Of a stretch of DNA of 18,486 bases, positions 1-11,179 are shown in pieces. The notes under the pieces were generated by a model. It made no database searches, was not told the DNA's origin, and was given only the letters and a program-made list of their open reading frames with translations. Source of the DNA: Candidatus Terraquivivens tengchongensis. Lineage in GTDB: Archaea > Thermoproteota > Nitrososphaeria_A > Caldarchaeales > Wolframiiraptoraceae. The DNA lies in contig JALNJZ010000010.1 of NCBI GenBank assembly GCA_023261845.1, positions 1 to 18,486 of the forward strand, read 5' to 3'. The position numbers were made by a program, and so were the translations under genes. Within the stretch, counting starts at the first letter, position 1; each line of letters opens with the position of its first letter.

Positions 1-1372
1 GACTAATTAATGCGCCAATATCAAAGATTAATAAGGTGTTAGGCTATAAGGAAGATTTTCGTCCTTCCCATAATGTAGCATTTATCCATGTTAATAAAGA
101 GAGAATAATCTCTGCGGAATCAAAATATGGTTTACCATTTATTGAGATTCTAAAAAAGGAATTGGACATATCAGAAGAAATCCCGCCAGAAGCAGGTCCA
201 CAAATGATTAAAGAAATTTTAGACAAGATTTGTAAGCAAGAACCAGAATTTTCCGACATCTTAAAAATTTCATTAGCTTGCCTAATTGCAGGTAAAAATA
301 TTGTTTTTTATGGCCCTCCTGGAACAAGTAAAACATATTTAGCAAAAAGAATTTGCGAGGCAATTTGTGGTGAACAAGGCTTTAGACTTGAAACTGCTAA
401 TGCTGAGTGGACTAATTTTGATATAATTGGAGGACCGGTTTCTGTACAAGAAAAAATGTTTCTAAAAAAAGGATAGTACTTGAAGCTATAGAAAGATGTG
501 AAAAGAGAATAAATAATGAGGATAGACCTTACTGGCTAATAATAGATGAACTGAATAGAGCGAACCTAGATTTAGCATTTGGTACAATCTTCACTCAACT
601 CGATATTGATCATAGAGATCAGCCTATTAAGCTTCCTTGGAATTTGCCTGATATTGAGGGGGAGATCACGTATAGTATGCCTCTCTCCTTTAGAATATTG
701 GCAACAATGAATACATATGATCGAGCTCTTCTTTTTTCTCTTGGATACGCTTTTATGCGCAGATTTGCCTTTATTCCAGTCAGGTCTCTCTTAAAAGAAG
801 AAAGTAAAGAGAAGGGAGAATTAATTCTGTCTGATGAAATAAATGAGATGATGAAAAAAGAAAGGATCAATAAACTCAAAGAGATAATATTTTCAGCCGT
901 TTACAAGCATTTTTCCAATAAAAAAGGTAAAGATAGGGCTTGTATCTTTGACTTTGAGATAGAGGACGAGGACAAGCTGAGCCAGATATTTAACAAAGAT
1001 CTTAAAATAGATAATATAGGATTACTGGATATACTTCTCTTCATCGCAAGTAAAATAACCAGTGCAGGTTTAATTGAGATCGGTCACGCAATTATTTTTG
1101 ACACTGCAAAATTTCTGGCAGCTTTCTATCTTCTTTCACAATTATTGCAGGAAAAAATTGATGCGCGTCTTCTTCTTGAGGAAACTATTTGCAGTTTCTT
1201 ATTACCTCAATTGGAATATTTTATGCCTAAGTTAAGAAAGGGGAAGGTTTTTGGAGAGGAAAAGTATGAGAAAGCTTGGAGAGAGGTCCTTGACATCTTT
1301 AGGAAATTAAATCTAAAATCAACACTAAAAAGATTGGAAGAAATAGAGGAAGAATTCAAAGTGATGGGCTAA
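1..1372 (+). pseudogene. mcrB: McrB-family AAA+ GTPase, 5'-truncated by the window edge and split by a -1 frameshift near 464-476
   Basis: The frame is open from base 3 and contains Walker A-like GPPGTSKT, stopping at 474-476. The -1 frame continues from 473 (IVLEAIERC...) through Walker B WLIIDELNRANLDLAFG, the McrB NxxD motif (TMNTYD) and the RRF arginine finger, joining ORF 644..1372. Confidence 0.88.
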
Positions 1373-1374
1373 AG

Positions 1375-2784
1375 ATGGTTGAGTACAGAGAGCTATATAC
1401 TTGGAATGATTACCATAGAAATTGTGAGGAACTTAAAGGTATGAATTGGAATGAATTATCAAGATGTGTTCGCTTTATTCACGAATTTGAGAAAATAATT
1501 CCTATCGAATATAGGGAGAAGATAGAAGAGGAATTGCCAACTGTAACTGACAATACTTTTAATCCAGGAGGATGGGTTGGTACTTATCCAGTTGGAGATA
1601 TCTGTTTACGCGTTGTCCCTAAACCTGAACTGTTATCAAAAGAACAATTTAAAGAGATCATGAATGAACTTATAGGATGGTTAGAATATGTTGGTCCTTT
1701 TCTTGAAAACTTTCTAAAATTTTGTTCTTACGAGCCAATCTTCAATCTTTTGCTTTGCGAAGCTTACAGTAGATACTTAGTAGAGTACACCGAGATAGCT
1801 CTTTCCCATTTTATTCCACGAGAGATGTCTTTTCGAGAATACATTAGCTATGAACTTAGAGGTAAACCATTATGGAATAAAATAGTTTTTCTGAGAGCCA
1901 GAGATCCGAATATCTTAACTTATAATAAAATTGAATTTATCCTTGAAACGCTTCTAAATCTTTTACTTGTCAGATTTCATGCAGATCTACTTAAAGAAAT
2001 GAAACGTTTAGTTGAGACGCTAGCTTATAGAGAAGAAAGTGTTCCTGAAGCACTACAGGGATGGAGAAATTATGTGCTTTATCATGAAGATTTTATAAGC
2101 AGTCCTTTATGGAGCGCTTTGCTTGGGAAGAGTATGGAAATTGACTTTGAATCTTTCGAGATTTTAGAGAGAACTAGGCGGATGGCAAAAGATATGTGGA
2201 GCGAAGTAGTCGATCTCTGGGAGTCGTATAGAGCCAAAAAAGCTTTATTCTCAGGTTTTGGAAATAGGTTTGATAATGCTATAAAGCCGTTAAGTAAAGT
2301 GTATGAGCTTTGGTGCTTCAAAAAACTATGTGATCTCTTCGGAATCGACCGGAGAAGCATAAGGGAATTTCCATTTAAAGGAGAATTTAAGTTTGCTGAC
2401 AAAATGTTAAGGCTCTATTATAATACTAAGGAAGGATTATCAAAATATAGCGGAATAATGAGAAAAATTCCCGGTGTTTCACCCGGTATTCCTGATTTTG
2501 TATTAGAAGATACGGAAGAGAAAAAGATAGTTTGCATAATGGACGCAAAATGTAAAAGCGAACTAAAAACGGAGGATATAAATCGCTTCCTTGCCTATAT
2601 GCTCGATTATATATACCCTTGTAATGATAAAATGACTGGATTAATATTTTATATTTCTAGAGAAGAAAAAATTATGTCAGTAGAAGTAAAAAATGTGAGA
2701 ATTTACCTTATTCCGCTAATCCCTCCCTTCTATCCACAAATGATTAGTGAGATTAAATTTATAATTGAAAAATCCCTTTCTTGA
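1375..2784 (+). CDS. McrC-like / DUF2357-type PD-(D/E)xK restriction nuclease subunit
   Basis: Starts 2 nt after the mcrB stop. N-terminal WVG...LRVVPK and C-terminal SKVYELWCF, PDFVLE and IMDAKCK match the McrC/LlaJI-type layout. Confidence 0.8.
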   Translation: MVEYRELYTWNDYHRNCEELKGMNWNELSRCVRFIHEFEKIIPIEYREKIEEELPTVTDNTFNPGGWVGTYPVGDICLRVVPKPELLSKEQFKEIMNELIGWLEYVGPFLENFLKFCSYEPIFNLLLCEAYSRYLVEYTEIALSHFIPREMSFREYISYELRGKPLWNKIVFLRARDPNILTYNKIEFILETLLNLLLVRFHADLLKEMKRLVETLAYREESVPEALQGWRNYVLYHEDFISSPLWSALLGKSMEIDFESFEILERTRRMAKDMWSEVVDLWESYRAKKALFSGFGNRFDNAIKPLSKVYELWCFKKLCDLFGIDRRSIREFPFKGEFKFADKMLRLYYNTKEGLSKYSGIMRKIPGVSPGIPDFVLEDTEEKKIVCIMDAKCKSELKTEDINRFLAYMLDYIYPCNDKMTGLIFYISREEKIMSVEVKNVRIYLIPLIPPFYPQMISEIKFIIEKSLS

Positions 2785-2808
2785 CCATATAAATCCTTGA
2801 AAATTTAA

Positions 2809-3666
2809 CTACCCTCTTCTTTCCCAGAATAGGATATTTCCCCTAAACTTTATTCCCCTTGTTTTGTCACAGAAGGTTTTTACTGGGCATTGACCATATT
2901 TTCTGCCCGTACATAATTTCGAGCCAATATTCCACATCGGCTCATCAAGTTTCCATGGTGAAGCACCAAACTTTTTAGCTGCTGTACGCCACACCTCCTG
3001 TATTATACTTTTTAGAGGGTCGTCATTACAGCATCCTTGGAACTTTTCACCGAGAAATCTTAATACTCCTGTATAAATTGTAAAACGAGCTACTTGTTTA
3101 TCTACTGGGATGTCAAGATCATTTAAATTTGAAACTTTAAATAATCCAGTTTCGCCCATAGCTCGGATATAAAAATTAGCCAGTTTAGAACCTCTAAGAT
3201 ATGGAAAATCATTCAGTTTATCTTTAATCTCTTCTACTGTTAGTGGCTGTACTGTAATGTTTCGTGGGTCTCCGTCATACTTCTCAATTAGAATTTTTGA
3301 TATTTTCTTCCATGTTTTAGCAGCGGATTTAGGGTATCTAGCACCAAGCCTGCGAAGAAAAACACTTAAGGATCTTTCACTAACAGCTAAAATCTTTCTA
3401 GGAGTAAATCTTTCGGGATAAAGCTCGTAAGCTCCTCTTGCCTTTCGCCATAGCTTTTCAGCACCCGTCATATAATCAATTGAAATAACATAAGTTAGGT
3501 AAAGAGCATGCTCACGACTACCTGCAATAAGATTACGCGGAAGATTATACTCTGGCATGGAGACAAGTGGATGACCTTGTTTGTGAAGATCGAGTAAGAT
3601 CTCAGCTATTTTCTCAGCCTTTTCCTCATTAATCTCAAATTCGCCAATAATCTTTCTCATATCCAC
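2809..3666 (-). CDS. HhH-GPD superfamily DNA glycosylase / endonuclease III-like protein
   Basis: HhH-like FPYLRGSKLAN with the Lys, catalytic Asp in DIPVDKQVAR, LDEPMWNIG, and a degenerate C-terminal Fe-S motif CTGRKYGQCPVKTFC. Confidence 0.8.
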   Translation of the reverse strand: MDMRKIIGEFEINEEKAEKIAEILLDLHKQGHPLVSMPEYNLPRNLIAGSREHALYLTYVISIDYMTGAEKLWRKARGAYELYPERFTPRKILAVSERSLSVFLRRLGARYPKSAAKTWKKISKILIEKYDGDPRNITVQPLTVEEIKDKLNDFPYLRGSKLANFYIRAMGETGLFKVSNLNDLDIPVDKQVARFTIYTGVLRFLGEKFQGCCNDDPLKSIIQEVWRTAAKKFGASPWKLDEPMWNIGSKLCTGRKYGQCPVKTFCDKTRGIKFRGNILFWERRG

Positions 3667-3669
3667 TCT

Positions 3670-3903
3670 CTATTTAATTTCTCGTTTGAATCCTACATTC
3701 ACAATCATTTCCCATTCTTTAGCTTTACTTTTTGAGTGGGACATTATCTGTATTCTAGTAGGCGCAGCATGCCTACTAGGCGTCCGCGTAGTTCTCTCGA
3801 TAAAGTATTTTAAAATCCTTAACGGAATAATTTCCATCACTAGTTCTTGCCCCTTAATATATTCCTCTATATGATCCCATCCTCTTTGTTCGCATAAGGA
3901 CAT
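3670..3903 (-). CDS. Hypothetical protein, possibly the 3' part of a frameshifted gene starting at 3952
   Basis: Ends 3 nt before the glycosylase start on the same strand. Removing one base from the T5 run at 3918-3922 joins it to an upstream ATG at 3952 (MEELSVVKIAK-ILHNDMSL...). Confidence 0.45.
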   Translation of the reverse strand: MSLCEQRGWDHIEEYIKGQELVMEIIPLRILKYFIERTTRTPSRHAAPTRIQIMSHSKSKAKEWEMIVNVGFKREIK

Positions 3904-4132
3904 ATCGTTATGAAGTATTTTTCGCTATCTTAACAACAGATAATTCTTCCATGGTTAATCTTTTAACGATTATGTCTATTAATTTTTTAGAAAACGCTCT
4001 TGTTATATGTTAGCAAGGAGGTTTTCCGTTTTTAGTTATTTTCAGAAGAGGGGTTTAAGAAATTAGGCTTTTCCTTTAGATCTTTTATTGAATGTAATGG
4101 ATGTAACATAGTTTAAGAATATAGAACTACGG

Positions 4133-4348
4133 CTATTTGTGAAATGTGATAAATTTAACGCTGACTGTTAATTTTTGTTCTTTGATTTTCTTTATGATTT
4201 CTATGTATTTCATGATTTCGTCTAGGTTTAGCTTTTTAATGCGATGTAAAGTAACGTAGAGGAAGCGTTGCTCCTTATCGCTATAGGGTTTTAGGTATGC
4301 TTCGAGAACCTTTCTTTCCCTGTCAGTTGGTAGCCTAGTTCTAACCAT
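4133..4348 (-). CDS. Small basic hypothetical protein (possible DNA-binding protein of the element)
   Basis: 71 aa, Lys/Arg-rich. Preceded by a purine-rich GGGGAG RBS-like sequence, starting 12 nt after the recombinase stop. Confidence 0.6.
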   Translation of the reverse strand: MVRTRLPTDRERKVLEAYLKPYSDKEQRFLYVTLHRIKKLNLDEIMKYIEIIKKIKEQKLTVSVKFITFHK

Positions 4349-4360
4349 GATTTTTCTCCC

Positions 4361-4749
4361 CTAGATTATTTTATGTTCCTTGAATGCTTCGAGAACATCG
4401 TATAGCGCTACTGTATCGTAGATTTCAGTTGTCTTTATTGAGGCGTGACCTAATATGGTCTGTATTATTCTTAATGGTACTCCTTTACGTCTTAGTAGGG
4501 TTGCGCCTCAACATATGTGGATGAACTCTTTCAGGGTTGGGGGATACCGGCTTTCTTAGCATGCTTCTTGATTAGATTTCTAACCTGCCTATCCGTAATA
4601 TTGAATAGGGGATCTTCAGGCTTCAAACCATTCTCCCTAATATAGCGCTTAAGGTTAGATTCAAACCGACTGAAAACCCTAAGCCACTTAGAAAGAAGAG
4701 GAATCGTGGATAAATATTTTCGGCAAATATGAGGATGACCCTGAACCAT
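4361..4749 (-). pseudogene. Xer-like tyrosine recombinase, C-terminal remnant with two frameshifting lesions
   Basis: Three frames concatenate to PLFNITDRQVRNLIKKHAKKAGIP / NPERVHPHMLR / ATLLRRKGVPLRIIQTILGHASIKTTEIY...* (HxLR, LGH and catalytic Tyr). There is an extra base in the G5 run at 4539-4543 and an apparent ~8 nt loss at 4504/4505. No N-terminal catalytic Arg region is visible. Confidence 0.88.
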
Positions 4750-4871
4750 TCATCAAAGCGCTATGGAAATATGCAGAAAAGCTAAAGGAGATAGAAAAAG
4801 AAGAAAAAAGGATTGAAGAAAAAATTAAAGAGGGGAAGGTTAAACGCATCTCCGCTTCCTCAAAAGATTAG
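4692..4871 (+). pseudogene. Start-less 3' fragment of an unknown charged helical protein
   Basis: Open frame KEEESWINIFGKYEDDPEPFIKALWKYAEKLKEIEKEEKRIEEKIKEGKVKRISASSKD* with no in-frame start codon. Its stop abuts the RBS of the next gene. Confidence 0.45.
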
Positions 4872-4884
4872 GGGTGGTGATAAA

Positions 4885-5193
4885 TTGGAAACCTTTGTAT
4901 GCAAAGGTAAACGGATGAAACGTAAGAATGTGGTTATTACGCTTGATCCCGAAATTGTGGAGAAGGCGAAGAAATTAGGCTTAAACATTTCTAAGGTTTG
5001 TGAAAATGCTCTAGTTCAGGCAGTAAACTCCTTAGAAACCGTATTTAGCGAAAAGGGAGGTAACCTAGGAACCATAGGTTCCCGGTTGGAGCCCCGGGCG
5101 GGATTCGAACCCGCGACCACCGGCTTACAAGGCCGGCGCTATACCGGGCTTAGCTACCGGGGCCCCTTCTACGGTTTTATGGACGCCAAATAA
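4885..5193 (+). CDS. CcdA-like ribbon-helix-helix ORF, probably the Int(N) fragment of a split (SSV1/pTN3-type) integrase
   Basis: RBS-like GGTGGTGA at 4873-4880 precedes TTG 4885 (alternative ATG 4915). KNVVITLDPEIVEKAKKLGLNISKVCENAL is an RHH/CcdA pattern. The frame runs without a stop antisense through tRNA-Thr (EPRAGFEPATTG). Confidence 0.7.
   Translation: METFVCKGKRMKRKNVVITLDPEIVEKAKKLGLNISKVCENALVQAVNSLETVFSEKGGNLGTIGSRLEPRAGFEPATTGLQGRRYTGLSYRGPFYGFMDAK
5087..5163 (-). tRNA. tRNA-Thr(UGU), intronless, CCA encoded
   Basis: The reverse complement folds as a cloverleaf: acceptor GCCCCGG/CCGGGGC, anticodon arm CCGGC-CTTGTAA-GCCGG, T arm GCGGG-TTCGAAT-CCCGC, discriminator T, then CCA. 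Confidence 0.97.
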
Positions 5194-5198
5194 TAATT

Positions 5199-5648
5199 TT
5201 ACTCTATCTCCTTGTACATTACAATCGCATCTTCGTCGTGATAATAGCGGTTTATCCTTCCCTTCTCGACGAAGCCCATGCTCAAATAAAACTTCCTGGC
5301 GACGGTATTTGACTCCCTGACCTCAAGCCAAACCTCATTCACTCCAGACCCTTTTACATAAGATATTGCAGCCTCCATCAATGCCCTTCCTATTCCCATA
5401 CGCCTGAAGCCTTGCTCCACCGCCAGGTTTAGAATGTGGCCAACCTTCTTTCCGTCACGCTCTTCGACGTCAAACACGACGTAGCCCACAAGTTTTTCGT
5501 TAACCAAGGCTACTTTAATGCTCCCGGGGTTTTTCGTGTGAAGATACGTAAACACGTAACAGGGCCATGGGTCCTTGAAGGATTCTTTCTCGATCCTGCA
5601 GACGTCCTCTATATCGGACGGTCTGAATGCTCTTATAACTATCTTCAT
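5199..5648 (-). CDS. rimI: RimI/Ard1-family GNAT N-acetyltransferase
   Basis: IEKESFKDPW, GHILNLAV, acetyl-CoA motif FRRMGIGRALM, LEVRESN, and YY...EDAIVM. Confidence 0.9.
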   Translation of the reverse strand: MKIVIRAFRPSDIEDVCRIEKESFKDPWPCYVFTYLHTKNPGSIKVALVNEKLVGYVVFDVEERDGKKVGHILNLAVEQGFRRMGIGRALMEAAISYVKGSGVNEVWLEVRESNTVARKFYLSMGFVEKGRINRYYHDEDAIVMYKEIE

Positions 5649-6690: not shown

Positions 6691-6889
6691 ATAATAAGAA
6701 GCGCACACCTCCCTTATCAATCTTCTACAGAAAGTTGCTCCTTTACGAGTTGCTGCCCACGAACGAGCTGCTTGTTTGGTACGGCTACGTAAGAAGTTCG
6801 ATGAGGAACGACAAGACAAAGGACGGCATGCTTACACAACGATAAAACTCCAGCAATTTTTAATAGGAATCTGCCTTACGTTGATTCGA

Positions 6890-7855
6890 ATGAACGAAGA
6901 GGATTCTAGTTCTGGCGAGTTTCCCCTTGTCCCCCTTCTTTGCGATTCTAAACCATTCTCTATAGTCAGGTACTTCGAGCACGCTCTGTATGAGGTGGCT
7001 AACGTAATTCCTGTCTACCTTGACGTTCACGAGTGGTTCATAAAGAAGCTCTCGATACCGTCCTTGCTCTACAAGCTCCTGAACCTGAGGCTCTCAAGAG
7101 TAAAGCCCATACCAAGAGAGCCCGACACAGTCCTTATGGTGGAGCCTCCTATCAAACGCCCTTATGACCTCGGAAAATTCAGGAACTCAATCAAGGTATT
7201 CTACGCCTTGGACCCGCACACCTCGAACGCCATGCAGGCCTACAGGAAATGCGAGCTTTGGAATTATGACTTCGTCTTCGTAGGGCAGAAGGACTACATC
7301 TGGATGTTCAAGGAGATGGGCTGCGACAAAGTCTTTTGGCTGCCTTACGCATACGATCCTAGGATATTCAGAGAAATACCAGGACTCCAAATGGTATACG
7401 ACGTTACTTTCTTGGGCTATATGAACGAGGAGAGGAGACACATGCTGGATGCTTTAAAGAAGAGGTTTAAGATGTTCACTACGGACAGCGGAAAGTTTGC
7501 GTTTATGCATGATGCATCCTCAGTATATTCAAAGTCAAAGATCGTGTTGCAGATCTCCAACAACAAGACGCTCGGATCCAGAATATTCGAGGCGATGGGC
7601 TGCAGGAGGATGGTGCTGGCAGATAGGATAAAGAACGGTTTAGAGGATATATTTAAAGAGGGTACCCACATAGCGCTGTACTCTGATCTGGACGAACTCA
7701 TAGAATTAATAAAATATTACTTGGAGGACGAAGGTAGAAGGGAACTCTTGGCCAACAACGGTTACAGGCTTGTGAGAACCTCGCACACCTACAAGCATAG
7801 GGTCATCACGATGATGGAGAGTCTCGGCATAAAGCTGCCGCAAAGTTTTACATGA
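6890..7855 (+). CDS. GT-B glycosyltransferase, CgeB / Glyco_trans_1_2-like
   Basis: WLPYAYDP, YDVTFLG, YSKSKIVL, RIFEAMGC and HTYKHRV motifs. ATG 6890 is preferred over the track start 6776 because a TATA-like TTTTTAATA lies about 25-30 nt upstream. Confidence 0.85.
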   Translation: MNEEDSSSGEFPLVPLLCDSKPFSIVRYFEHALYEVANVIPVYLDVHEWFIKKLSIPSLLYKLLNLRLSRVKPIPREPDTVLMVEPPIKRPYDLGKFRNSIKVFYALDPHTSNAMQAYRKCELWNYDFVFVGQKDYIWMFKEMGCDKVFWLPYAYDPRIFREIPGLQMVYDVTFLGYMNEERRHMLDALKKRFKMFTTDSGKFAFMHDASSVYSKSKIVLQISNNKTLGSRIFEAMGCRRMVLADRIKNGLEDIFKEGTHIALYSDLDELIELIKYYLEDEGRRELLANNGYRLVRTSHTYKHRVITMMESLGIKLPQSFT

Positions 7856-8017: not shown

Positions 8018-8064
8018 CCGCGCTCAGAGGCTTGGAGACGTCGCTAGCTGGGCGGCGTGGAACA
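8018..8064 (+). other. 5' arm of the pre-23S processing stem (bulge-helix-bulge)
   Basis: GGAGACG-TCGC-[TAG]-CTGGGCGGCGTGG pairs with 11138-11164. CCGCGCTCAGAGGC (8018-8031) pairs with 11166-11179. Confidence 0.88.
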
Positions 8065-11133
<3,069 letters not shown>

Positions 11134-11179
11134 AAAGCCATGCCGTCCAGGCGAAAATGTCTCCTGCCTTTGGGCGCGG
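11134..11179 (+). other. 3' arm of the pre-23S processing stem (bulge-helix-bulge)
   Basis: CCATGCCGTCCAG-GCGA-[AAA]-TGTCTCC. The 4-bp central helix TCGC/GCGA is flanked by 3-nt bulges on opposite strands. Confidence 0.88.

Follow-up and report, generated by a model that had tools for sequence, protein, structure and literature searches.

An accessory archaeal family of HhH-GPD glycosylase-like proteins accompanied by YaaA/DUF6884-type or QueF-like partners

To our knowledge, defence by glycosylases that destroy modified viral DNA has been recognised only recently and so far just in bacteria. The Dag HhH glycosylases (Dag1, Dag2 and further HhH families) defend against phages with 7-deazaguanine DNA, are found in AT-rich mobile contexts and in some cases cluster close to AGOG by fold (Getz et al., bioRxiv 10.1101/2025.10.29.685425). 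Another defence glycosylase, Brig3, is helped by a base-modifying enzyme, BapA (bioRxiv 10.64898/2026.02.25.707755). Here, we describe an HhH-GPD glycosylase-like gene, GLY, located at 2809..3666 on the minus strand of an 18,486-bp contig of the archaeon Candidatus Terraquivivens tengchongensis. The window, i.e. the whole stretch of DNA analysed, is this entire contig (C10) of a 1.22-Mb genome that is 99.4% complete (G000). An earlier note, made from the letters of the window, had grouped GLY with the adjoining mcrB- and mcrC-like genes as a candidate defence module. The features it named are all in the sequence, that is, the two mcr-like genes, the convergent HhH-GPD gene 24 nt off and the AT-rich island by a tRNA gene. 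It also spoke of an undescribed system; since HhH-fold defence glycosylases (Dag) were already in a 2025 preprint, the kind is not undescribed.

GLY resembles the Dag enzymes by its HhH-superfamily fold and by its accessory, mobile, AT-rich and non-core context. The target of Dag is 7-deazaguanine in viral DNA, and that of GLY would be the same. In contrast to GLY, the Dag systems are bacterial, integron-borne and made of a single gene, and the description in the consulted part of the preprint, on which this comparison relies, includes neither an Fe-S loop nor a DUF6884 or QueF-like partner. The Brig3-BapA pair offers an analogy, and only that, to the arrangement proposed below, since a defence glycosylase is aided there by a neighbouring base-modifying enzyme; its target, however, is 5hmC and glucosyl-5hmC, and its helper is a glucose hydrolase. 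We show that GLY belongs to an uncharacterised family whose recurrent partner is a YaaA/DUF6884-type or QueF-like protein and not McrBC. These partners, the QueF-like pseudogene beside GLY, a frameshift in mcrB and a Cys257Tyr change in GLY had been overlooked in the earlier note. What the window newly contributes is the QueF-like alternative partner, a Qng1-type fold ranking, provirus contexts, a negative control of raw defence-gene rates and the finding that the McrBC adjacency is incidental.

Predicted fold and conserved residues of GLY

The GLY protein has 285 aa, with a loop of four cysteines, and its gene is convergent on the mcrC-like gene, with a gap of exactly 24 nt. AGOG (PF09171) is its sole Pfam match, with 26.4 bits for a cut-off of 26.1, and this match is confined to the last 70 residues of the protein (positions 165-232 of the 248 in the model); the score was 26.0 in the whole-genome search and 27.4 with in-frame neighbours. 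A direct phmmer comparison with Pae-AGOG gave an E value of 0.008 and placed D189, D241 and W245 of GLY on D172, D218 and W222 of AGOG. With a profile of 61 GLY sequences, the PDB matches were AGOG (1e-7), EndoIII (2.9e-7) and also ROS1 and MutY (7e-4). The EndoIII match is nearly full length and includes the hairpin Lys and the PVD motif, K161 falling on the Lys of GRK and D189 on the Asp of PVDtHV, and the MutY match lies in the Cys loop. The canonical HhH-GPD model PF00730 fails to detect the GLY family.

The AlphaFold model of GLY (pLDDT 94.9) confirms a two-lobe HhH-GPD fold. Its top match by Foldseek is DUF2419/Qng1, a queuosine (7-deazaguanine) glycosylase (PDB 7u07, 7u1o, 7ugk), at 13-15% identity and with a shared HhH Asp/Lys pair. 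The alignment extends over 245-251 residues with Qng1 versus 205-209 with EndoIII, and ∼60 extra N-terminal residues of GLY align with Qng1 and not with EndoIII. By sequence, however, GLY is not a member of this group, as no DUF2419 Pfam match was obtained at E ≤ 0.01. Qng1 also differs in that it acts on a free nucleotide and that insertions block its DNA cleft; its substrate is a 7-deazaguanine nucleoside, whose ring packs on W302, with D298 holding it in place (PMC9881137). The catalytic residues of AGOG are K140 and D172, and its W222 forms a stack with the base (PMC9638937).

K161, D189 and D241 are invariant in the 83 homologues from fetched loci (83/83), and W245 is present in at least 90% of the wide GLY alignment. 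GLY thus has the catalytic Asp (PVD) and the hairpin Lys of bifunctional HhH-GPD members, together with the guanine pocket of AGOG (PDB 1xqo/1xqp), D241 and W245 being the equivalents of D218 and W222 in an Asp-x3-Trp arrangement. Judged from the quoted residue numbers alone, D298 and W302 of Qng1 appear to be the same Asp-x3-Trp pair. Only 2 or 3 of the 83 homologues lack the complete loop C252-x4-C257-x2-C260-x5-C266, which aligns to the EndoIII/MutY loop; position 257 is a Cys in 82/82 homologues. The first spacing is x4 in GLY, unlike the x6 of the EndoIII/MutY/Mig class, and the pocket is of the AGOG kind, which further separates GLY from EndoIII, MutY and Mig. We know of no Cys loop in Qng1. 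From its sequence, GLY is therefore predicted to be an HhH-GPD enzyme combining an AGOG-type guanine pocket with an EndoIII/MutY-type [4Fe-4S] loop.

Distribution of the family and its partner genes

Two canonical PF00730 HhH-GPD genes are present elsewhere in the host genome (contigs C14 and C8). GLY-type matches were found in 2/7 genomes of the genus and in 0/18 others of the family, and full-length matches (>500 bits) in 3/401 genomes of the phylum sample, in which the weaker matches correspond to more distant relatives and true AGOGs. The two canonical genes and the rarity of strong matches support the conclusion that GLY is an accessory, mobile gene and not the housekeeping Nth, as the earlier note had held. 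The wider family comprises 924 representative clusters at E ≤ 0.001, 62 of them at E ≤ 1e-30.

For the analysis of gene neighbourhoods, we used the best 80 of 293 confirmed metagenome loci plus three genome loci. ORFs were called by a crude longest-ORF rule, and dereplication at 95% GLY identity left 62 groups. For the Pfam, PADLOC and PHROG scans, the neighbours up to 4 genes from GLY were clustered and each cluster was represented by a single protein (250 proteins), singletons of <75 aa being left out. The flanks of GLY differ in almost every one of the 62 groups, and the predominance of conserved housekeeping contexts that the earlier note had named as an argument against its proposal was thus not observed. 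Tailed-virus genes stand beside GLY in three loci: TerL (E 3e-41) and a portal gene in L043, a portal gene (E 5e-44) in L084, and scaffold and major head protein genes in L007. Integrases are located near GLY in L067 and L095 and a transposase in L087, and some relatives adjoin an Lhr helicase, RadA or NucS-like nucleases. The only relative in the phage collection is gene 212, 'endonuclease III', of Halogranum tailed virus 1 (HGTV-1, NC_021328.1, L147; family profile E 3.5e-33).

Two side observations concern these loci. In HGTV-1 (6968-7690 and 8190-8864), some 500 bp separate the GLY relative from a 'Mom-like DNA modification protein', with genes for RNA ligase and DNA ligase in the vicinity as well. 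In L086, a 443-aa protein (1033-2364, minus strand) that clusters with GLY and has no Pfam or PADLOC match adjoins a C5 DNA methylase. A second GLY is encoded three genes away, and the 443-aa protein is possibly a long paralogue.

A YaaA-superfamily neighbour was found within 4 genes of GLY in 34/62 groups, all YaaA-type proteins counted, and a QueF-like neighbour (cluster c5) in 4/62. The main neighbour, c1, is a protein of ∼143 aa. In 14 representative loci, its gene immediately follows GLY in the same orientation, the gap measuring -22 to +12 nt; in other loci, a single gene separates the two. It is a DUF6884 protein (PF21818, E 7e-47) that also matches PADLOC PDC-M57A over its full length (E 1.8e-36) and phrog_5935. 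Related YaaA/DUF6884 proteins (c8, c113, c405 and c4) occupy the place of c1 elsewhere, c4 having a YaaA fold (Atlas features 0.95, TM 0.67-0.74). Moreover, a scan of 30 long family members revealed 9 fusions between GLY and DUF6884, in either order; 2 of these 30 long forms carry a thymidylate kinase and 4 a DUF7669 domain. The QueF-like c5 proteins (114-168 aa) have a conserved Cys-Pro motif, and their Atlas model matches QueF PF14489 clusters with a TM of 0.57-0.60.

The partner types are scattered on the GLY tree, and near-identical sister GLYs can differ in partner type; on a quick tree, no clustering of partner type was seen (24 changes versus a shuffled mean of 23.2). Two further types of protein were noted between GLY and DUF6884, namely a DUF2400 protein (PF09674, E 1.8e-13; cluster c90) in two groups (L118, 3261-4259, and L074) and a NUDIX protein in L095.

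The window itself retains a trace of the QueF-like type. A c5 pseudogene lies directly upstream of GLY on the minus strand (3670..3990, upper bound approximate), with 37-43% identity to c5 proteins by blastp/tblastn. Its C-terminal 68 residues are in frame (ORF 3670..3903, orf77), and a remnant of the N-terminal Cys-Pro motif lies in another frame, with stops. No PF21818, PF03883 or PF14489 match was found in the host genome, and DUF6884 (PDC-M57A) was also not among the island ORFs. On these sequence matches, the window copy is read as a solo remnant, its QueF-like helper being predicted dead and the genome having no Pfam match to DUF6884, YaaA or QueF. The family can also be compared with the PADLOC candidate system PDC-M57: its usual partner c1 matches the A component, whereas the window and the genome do not contain this component and GLY has no PADLOC model match. 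No paper on a glycosylase-DUF6884 or glycosylase-QueF-like pair and no mention of PDC-M57 were found in the literature searched; the supplements of the Dag preprint may list related families.

Proposed function, defence context and the McrBC-like pair

Without quite reaching even confidence, we favour the view of GLY as a mobile enzyme for the excision, from foreign DNA, of a modified guanine that is probably a 7-deazaguanine; its helper would broaden the range of substrates or deal with the product. GLY would flip the modified guanine out of DNA and cut the glycosidic bond, and the abasic site or nick left behind would block the foreign genome. It would work with an adjacent or fused helper of the YaaA/DpdC superfamily (DUF6884), replaced in some relatives by the QueF-like protein; the helper would either turn related bases into the one that GLY can excise, in the manner of BapA with Brig3, or take charge of the product. 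The gene pair would move among archaea on proviruses and islands, as we propose from the contexts above. A role in a mobile modified-base system, and not in routine repair, is suggested by the fact that relatives travel with enzymes of 7-deazaguanine chemistry, and a 7-deazaguanine-type target by the presence, in both helper families, of enzymes that process the preQ0 nitrile. In the Dpd system, DpdC, a DUF328/PF03883 protein, hydrolyses dPreQ0 in DNA. QueF and QueF-L likewise act on the preQ0 nitrile (PMC6884629). The anatomy, fold, conserved residues, distribution, partner linkage and strain polymorphisms are thus shown here, whereas the substrate, any part in defence and the task of the helper are inferred.

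Several results weigh against this proposal. The link to 7-deazaguanine is drawn from the family resemblance of the helpers and from the fold ranking, in which Qng1 stands above EndoIII by only 1.3-2.3 Z units. The assignment of c5 to QueF comes from one Atlas comparison, and the c5 profile found QueF in the PDB only at a non-significant E of 0.5-0.6, below chance coiled-coil matches. No preQ0-pathway or DpdA gene was present within 4 genes of GLY among the cluster representatives scanned. GLY had no PADLOC model match at E ≤ 0.01, and none of the 17 pattern matches in an IMG/VR pattern scan was confirmed as a GLY relative. Housekeeping neighbours occur in L008, L060, L100, L108 and L115, the copy of the same genus (L008) being flanked by PAC2, Lsm, KaiC and thioredoxin reductase genes. 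Finally, raw PADLOC matches (E ≤ 1e-5) were not more frequent near GLY (27/250) than among genes of these contigs at a distance of at least six positions (21/150), or among genes from eight arbitrarily chosen 20-kb regions of the host genome (22/150; L120-L127); Fisher p was 0.27 for near versus random. The defence-island enrichment that the earlier note expected is therefore not borne out by the raw rates.

Most of the background PADLOC matches are to generic domains (SMC, ABC ATPases, SAM methylases, E1, AAA/CDC48 and PolB). When strong and specific matches were curated by hand, 18/400 were counted on GLY contigs versus 1/150 (Fisher p 0.03), a subjective count made on non-independent loci. 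The strong defence genes near GLY include ThsB-TIR and PDC-M50A in L112, HsdM in L067, the C5 methylase in L086, BglII with an AAA_15 ATPase in L090, Cas4 in L096 and PD-T4-1 in L057, and PDC-S11 nucleases are found near GLY in 5 groups. As a side remark, the use of PADLOC gene by gene needs caution, given that 22/150 ordinary archaeal genes match at E ≤ 1e-5.

The absence of raw enrichment would suit a role of GLY in accessory repair, namely the removal of oxidised guanine (8-oxoG/Fapy-type) as by AGOG, with the YaaA/DUF6884 protein binding or protecting the abasic product and the pair giving extra repair capacity on proviruses and islands of thermophiles. AGOG is the sole Pfam match of GLY and its best PDB sequence match, and the guanine-pocket residues are common to both. 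DUF6884 is a distant relative of YaaA, a peroxide-stress DNA-binding protein, and a DUF6884 member, YfjM, has been found on abasic or RNA-base lesions (PMC11701544). Relatives set among housekeeping genes (L008) or beside the Lhr helicase, RadA or NucS-like nucleases point the same way. However, we judge this role unlikely: the distribution is patchy (3/401 genomes, 2/7 in the genus), the contexts are low-GC islands and proviruses, two canonical HhH-GPD genes are present in the host anyway, a QueF-like protein, which has no known role in repair, can take the place of the partner, and PADLOC lists DUF6884 as a defence candidate.

The pairing of GLY with a DpdC-superfamily or a QueF-like protein also mirrors those of DpdA with DpdC and of DpdA with QueF-L (PMC6884629). 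GLY might accordingly be a writer of DNA modification that exchanges 7-deazaguanine into DNA in the stead of DpdA, its DpdC- or QueF-like neighbour maturing preQ0, so that viral or host DNA is protected from restriction. Other points would agree with this: Qng1, which ranks first by fold, binds a 7-deazaguanine nucleoside, tailed proviruses harbour some of the relatives, and a PDC-S11-type nuclease stands beside GLY and a YaaA-like gene in three groups, a layout like that of restriction-modification systems. Moreover, some viruses with 7-deazaguanine DNA, such as HVTV-1, have no DpdA (PMC6884629). The writer is weakened by this same virus, as no GLY-family match was found in HVTV-1 with the family profile A3 at E ≤ 0.01. 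The hairpin Lys conserved in 83/83 homologues is typical of lyase-type enzymes that nick DNA, and no preQ0-synthesis genes were seen beside GLY. We know of no HhH-GPD enzyme that exchanges bases. Such a writer is, in our view, quite improbable.

A broader statement of excision by GLY would be that GLY and its interchangeable helpers form an unrecognised 7-deazaguanine DNA system of archaea and tailed viruses, in which an Fe-S glycosylase with a Qng1/AGOG-type guanine pocket removes such bases or, in its boldest form, exchanges them in without DpdA, while a nitrile-processing helper (a DpdC-superfamily DUF6884/YaaA-type protein or a QueF-like T-fold protein) converts preQ0-type bases; we hold this to be somewhat unlikely. 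Archaea make 7-deazaguanines for archaeosine. If the favoured function is true, the GLY family extends the class of defence glycosylases to archaea and viruses and adds to it an Fe-S enzyme with a helper. The removal version would represent the first equivalent, in archaea and with two components, of the Dag defences of bacteria, and the exchange version a DpdA-independent route of DNA modification. The 7-deazaguanines constitute a testable substrate class, and the interchangeable DpdC-like and QueF-like helpers provide a direct biochemical handle.

The mcr-like genes adjoining GLY were compared with McrBC of E. coli (EcoKMcrBC) and Thermococcus gammatolerans (PDB 6ut3-6ut8). The mcrB-like gene occupies two frames of the plus strand. 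The first (3..476), whose 5' end is cut by the contig start, encodes the N-terminal part of an AAA+ domain with the Walker A motif GPPGTSKT; it matches AAA_5 (22.9 bits), AAA and bpMoxR in Pfam and, weakly, the NCBIfam McrB model PRK11331 (E 0.0017), and is 43-51% identical to the orthologues in L072, L141, L142 and L143. The second frame (467..1372) carries the Walker B motif LIIDELNRAN and the motifs MNTYDR and RRF. In phmmer searches, it matches McrB of E. coli (6hz4, E 3.6e-10) and of T. gammatolerans (6ut3, E 5.1e-10), the McrB matches extending up to ∼1e-9, and the alignment runs through DELNRAN, MNTxDR and RRF, which is the AAA+ GTPase core. The mcrC-like gene (1375..2784, plus strand, 469 aa) starts 3 nt past the mcrB stop. 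Its product has no Pfam, NCBIfam, PADLOC or PHROG match, and its 20 homologues are neither named nor assigned a Pfam domain. The C-terminal PD-(D/E)xK motif, P373-D374...D390-A391-K392, is invariant in the alignment of 19 sequences, and the top PDB match of a 19-homologue profile is T. gammatolerans McrC (6ut5_G, E 0.0016), with the motif aligned to PDYVV...LDAKYR. The comparison with E. coli McrC is weak (hhalign E 0.028, probability 1.8%), and the N-terminal region has only a weak profile stretch to McrC (6.9 bits). By its AAA+ motifs and the adjoining PD-(D/E)xK partner gene, the pair is thus accepted as a putative divergent McrBC; unlike in the known systems, its McrC is very divergent and outside Pfam and PADLOC models, and the N-terminal, reader-domain part of its McrB falls outside the contig. 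In the L072 McrB orthologue, the first 336 aa matched nothing in the PDB at E ≤ 0.1.

The spacing of 24 nt would be consistent with a single system of three parts, McrB, McrC and GLY, where the glycosylase would mark modified DNA or open it ahead of McrBC, or come into play afterwards, as the earlier note had allowed. The trio, with a CcdA-like gene, recurs in L072, where the identities to the window are 44-54% for McrB, 50% for McrC, 68% for GLY and 46% for the CcdA-like protein (44-68% overall). However, the distribution largely refutes such a partnership: McrBC adjoins GLY in only 2/63 groups, the window and L072, which may represent one inherited island and not independent events. The L072 genes are co-directional, with a DUF6615 gene between them, whereas those of the window are convergent. 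Moreover, the same McrBC cassette occurs without GLY at 3/5 loci (twice in genome G115 and once, broken, in G247), as compact patches of low GC that span just the two mcr genes. A three-part system is consequently very improbable, and McrBC constitutes a mobile cassette of two genes in its own right, located on the same island as GLY but not tied to it as a partner; their adjacency is incidental. The two G115 copies lie 60 kb apart on the same contig, C5 (L141, 7467-11048; L142, 6537-9620), with ∼50% identity, each in a sharp low-GC patch; their McrB proteins have 726 and 553 aa, implying different N-terminal domains.

State of the window copy and its island

The window is a weak exemplar of the family, with a dead helper and a damaged allele, and its value lies in the GLY family to which it leads. 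The window GLY has Tyr257 in place of the second loop cysteine and Gly68 where 81/83 homologues have Asp; its Cys213 is unique to the species. Codon 257 is TAT (2896..2898), and 4/4 public runs containing the window sequence, which are hot-spring metagenomes, read C and not T at 2897, giving TGT. In the protein cluster of the species, Cys257 is present in two entries and Tyr257 in one, the latter being found on 10 contigs. Because of this second protein entry with Tyr257, it is probably a real, derived allele, and a sequencing error is improbable. The window GLY thus carries 3/4 of the predicted Fe-S ligands, and its terminal branch (0.42 versus a median of 0.11 in a quick tree) is about four times the median. 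The long branch together with D68G and C257Y suggests that this copy may be inactive, which is a further point against the function favoured above.

The mcrB-like gene of the window is also damaged, being split by a 1-base frameshift at 470/471. The four orthologues continue uninterrupted across this junction, at which the two frames abut without loss, and the contigs of 4/4 public runs contain one extra G behind 470. As this G opens the frame, the frameshift is strain-specific or an assembly slip.

Taken further, these lesions could mean that the whole module is dead in this strain, GLY (C257Y, D68G), the frameshifted mcrB, the QueF-like gene and the integrase all being relics without function. 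Tyr257 where 82/82 homologues have Cys, Gly68 instead of the nearly general Asp, the long GLY branch, the two pseudogenes, the mcrB frame broken in the window and open in 4/4 runs, and the recurrence of the Tyr allele on 10 contigs would all fit this explanation. However, the GLY frame is fully open over its 285 aa, with every catalytic residue intact, the adjacent species-unique Cys213 could stand in for the lost ligand, and the mcrB frameshift could be an assembly error. We regard a dead module as possible, with the balance leaning against it.

Two other length differences were observed between the window and the public runs. A 202-nt segment of the integrase pseudogene (4486..4687) is absent from the contigs of 4/4 runs (X1-X4), which join 4485 to 4688 and have zero depth in the bin 4501-4680; this is a strain-level deletion or insertion polymorphism. 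In mcrB, the runs X1, X2 and X4 (3/4) have a 12-nt in-frame insertion at 829-843, and the fourth has a different small rearrangement there; this is a length-polymorphic stretch of a Lys/Glu-rich linker.

The GC content is 0.348 over 1..4500, versus 0.43-0.47 for the genome contigs (genome ∼45%), and it climbs from 0.35 to 0.40-0.50 at a tRNA-Thr(TGT) gene (5087..5163, minus strand; ARAGORN, Rfam 73.4 bits), which forms the boundary of the low-GC island. A tyrosine-recombinase (integrase) pseudogene lies at ∼4400..4749 on the minus strand (bounds approximate) as pieces in three frames, with an XerA-type NCBIfam match for ORF 4531..4749 (E 0.0024) and box motifs in other frames. The earlier note had called the whole a tRNA-integrated element. 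The end of the low-GC stretch at the tRNA gene and the integrase remnants agree with this, but no second copy of the att site (the tRNA-Thr end) was found in a search of all contigs, as the island extends beyond the contig start. The 16-mer matches to the tRNA-Thr end considered as att candidates were merely T-arms of other tRNAs, and the repeats within 1..5400 considered as att sites or element ends were short chance matches. The QueF-like and integrase pseudogenes, together with the damaged GLY allele, mark the island as a presumptive old and decaying insertion.

The island contains two other ORFs. A 71-aa ORF of unknown function (4133..4348, minus strand; ORF call) had no match in Pfam, NCBIfam, PADLOC or PHROGs. 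On the plus strand, the ORF 4813..5193 encodes a CcdA-like ribbon-helix-helix domain (residues 37-73; PF07362, E 1.8e-7); the true gene is probably shorter, because the 3' part of the ORF overlaps tRNA-Thr on the opposite strand. CcdA-like homologues are found near GLY in L072, L100 and further loci. A promoter and terminator scan of 2600..4200 gave no more sites than in shuffled sequences, with a sigma-70 model that is inapplicable to archaea.

Outside the island, the window contains the RNase P RNA and then the 23S rRNA gene, and no 5S gene was reported in it by the Rfam scan. The 23S gene (8063-11135) stands alone, with a 359-aa ORF (6776..7855) upstream, and the sole 16S gene of the genome lies mid-way in another contig of 252 kb (C12, 91061-92585), so the rRNA genes appear to be unlinked in this genome.

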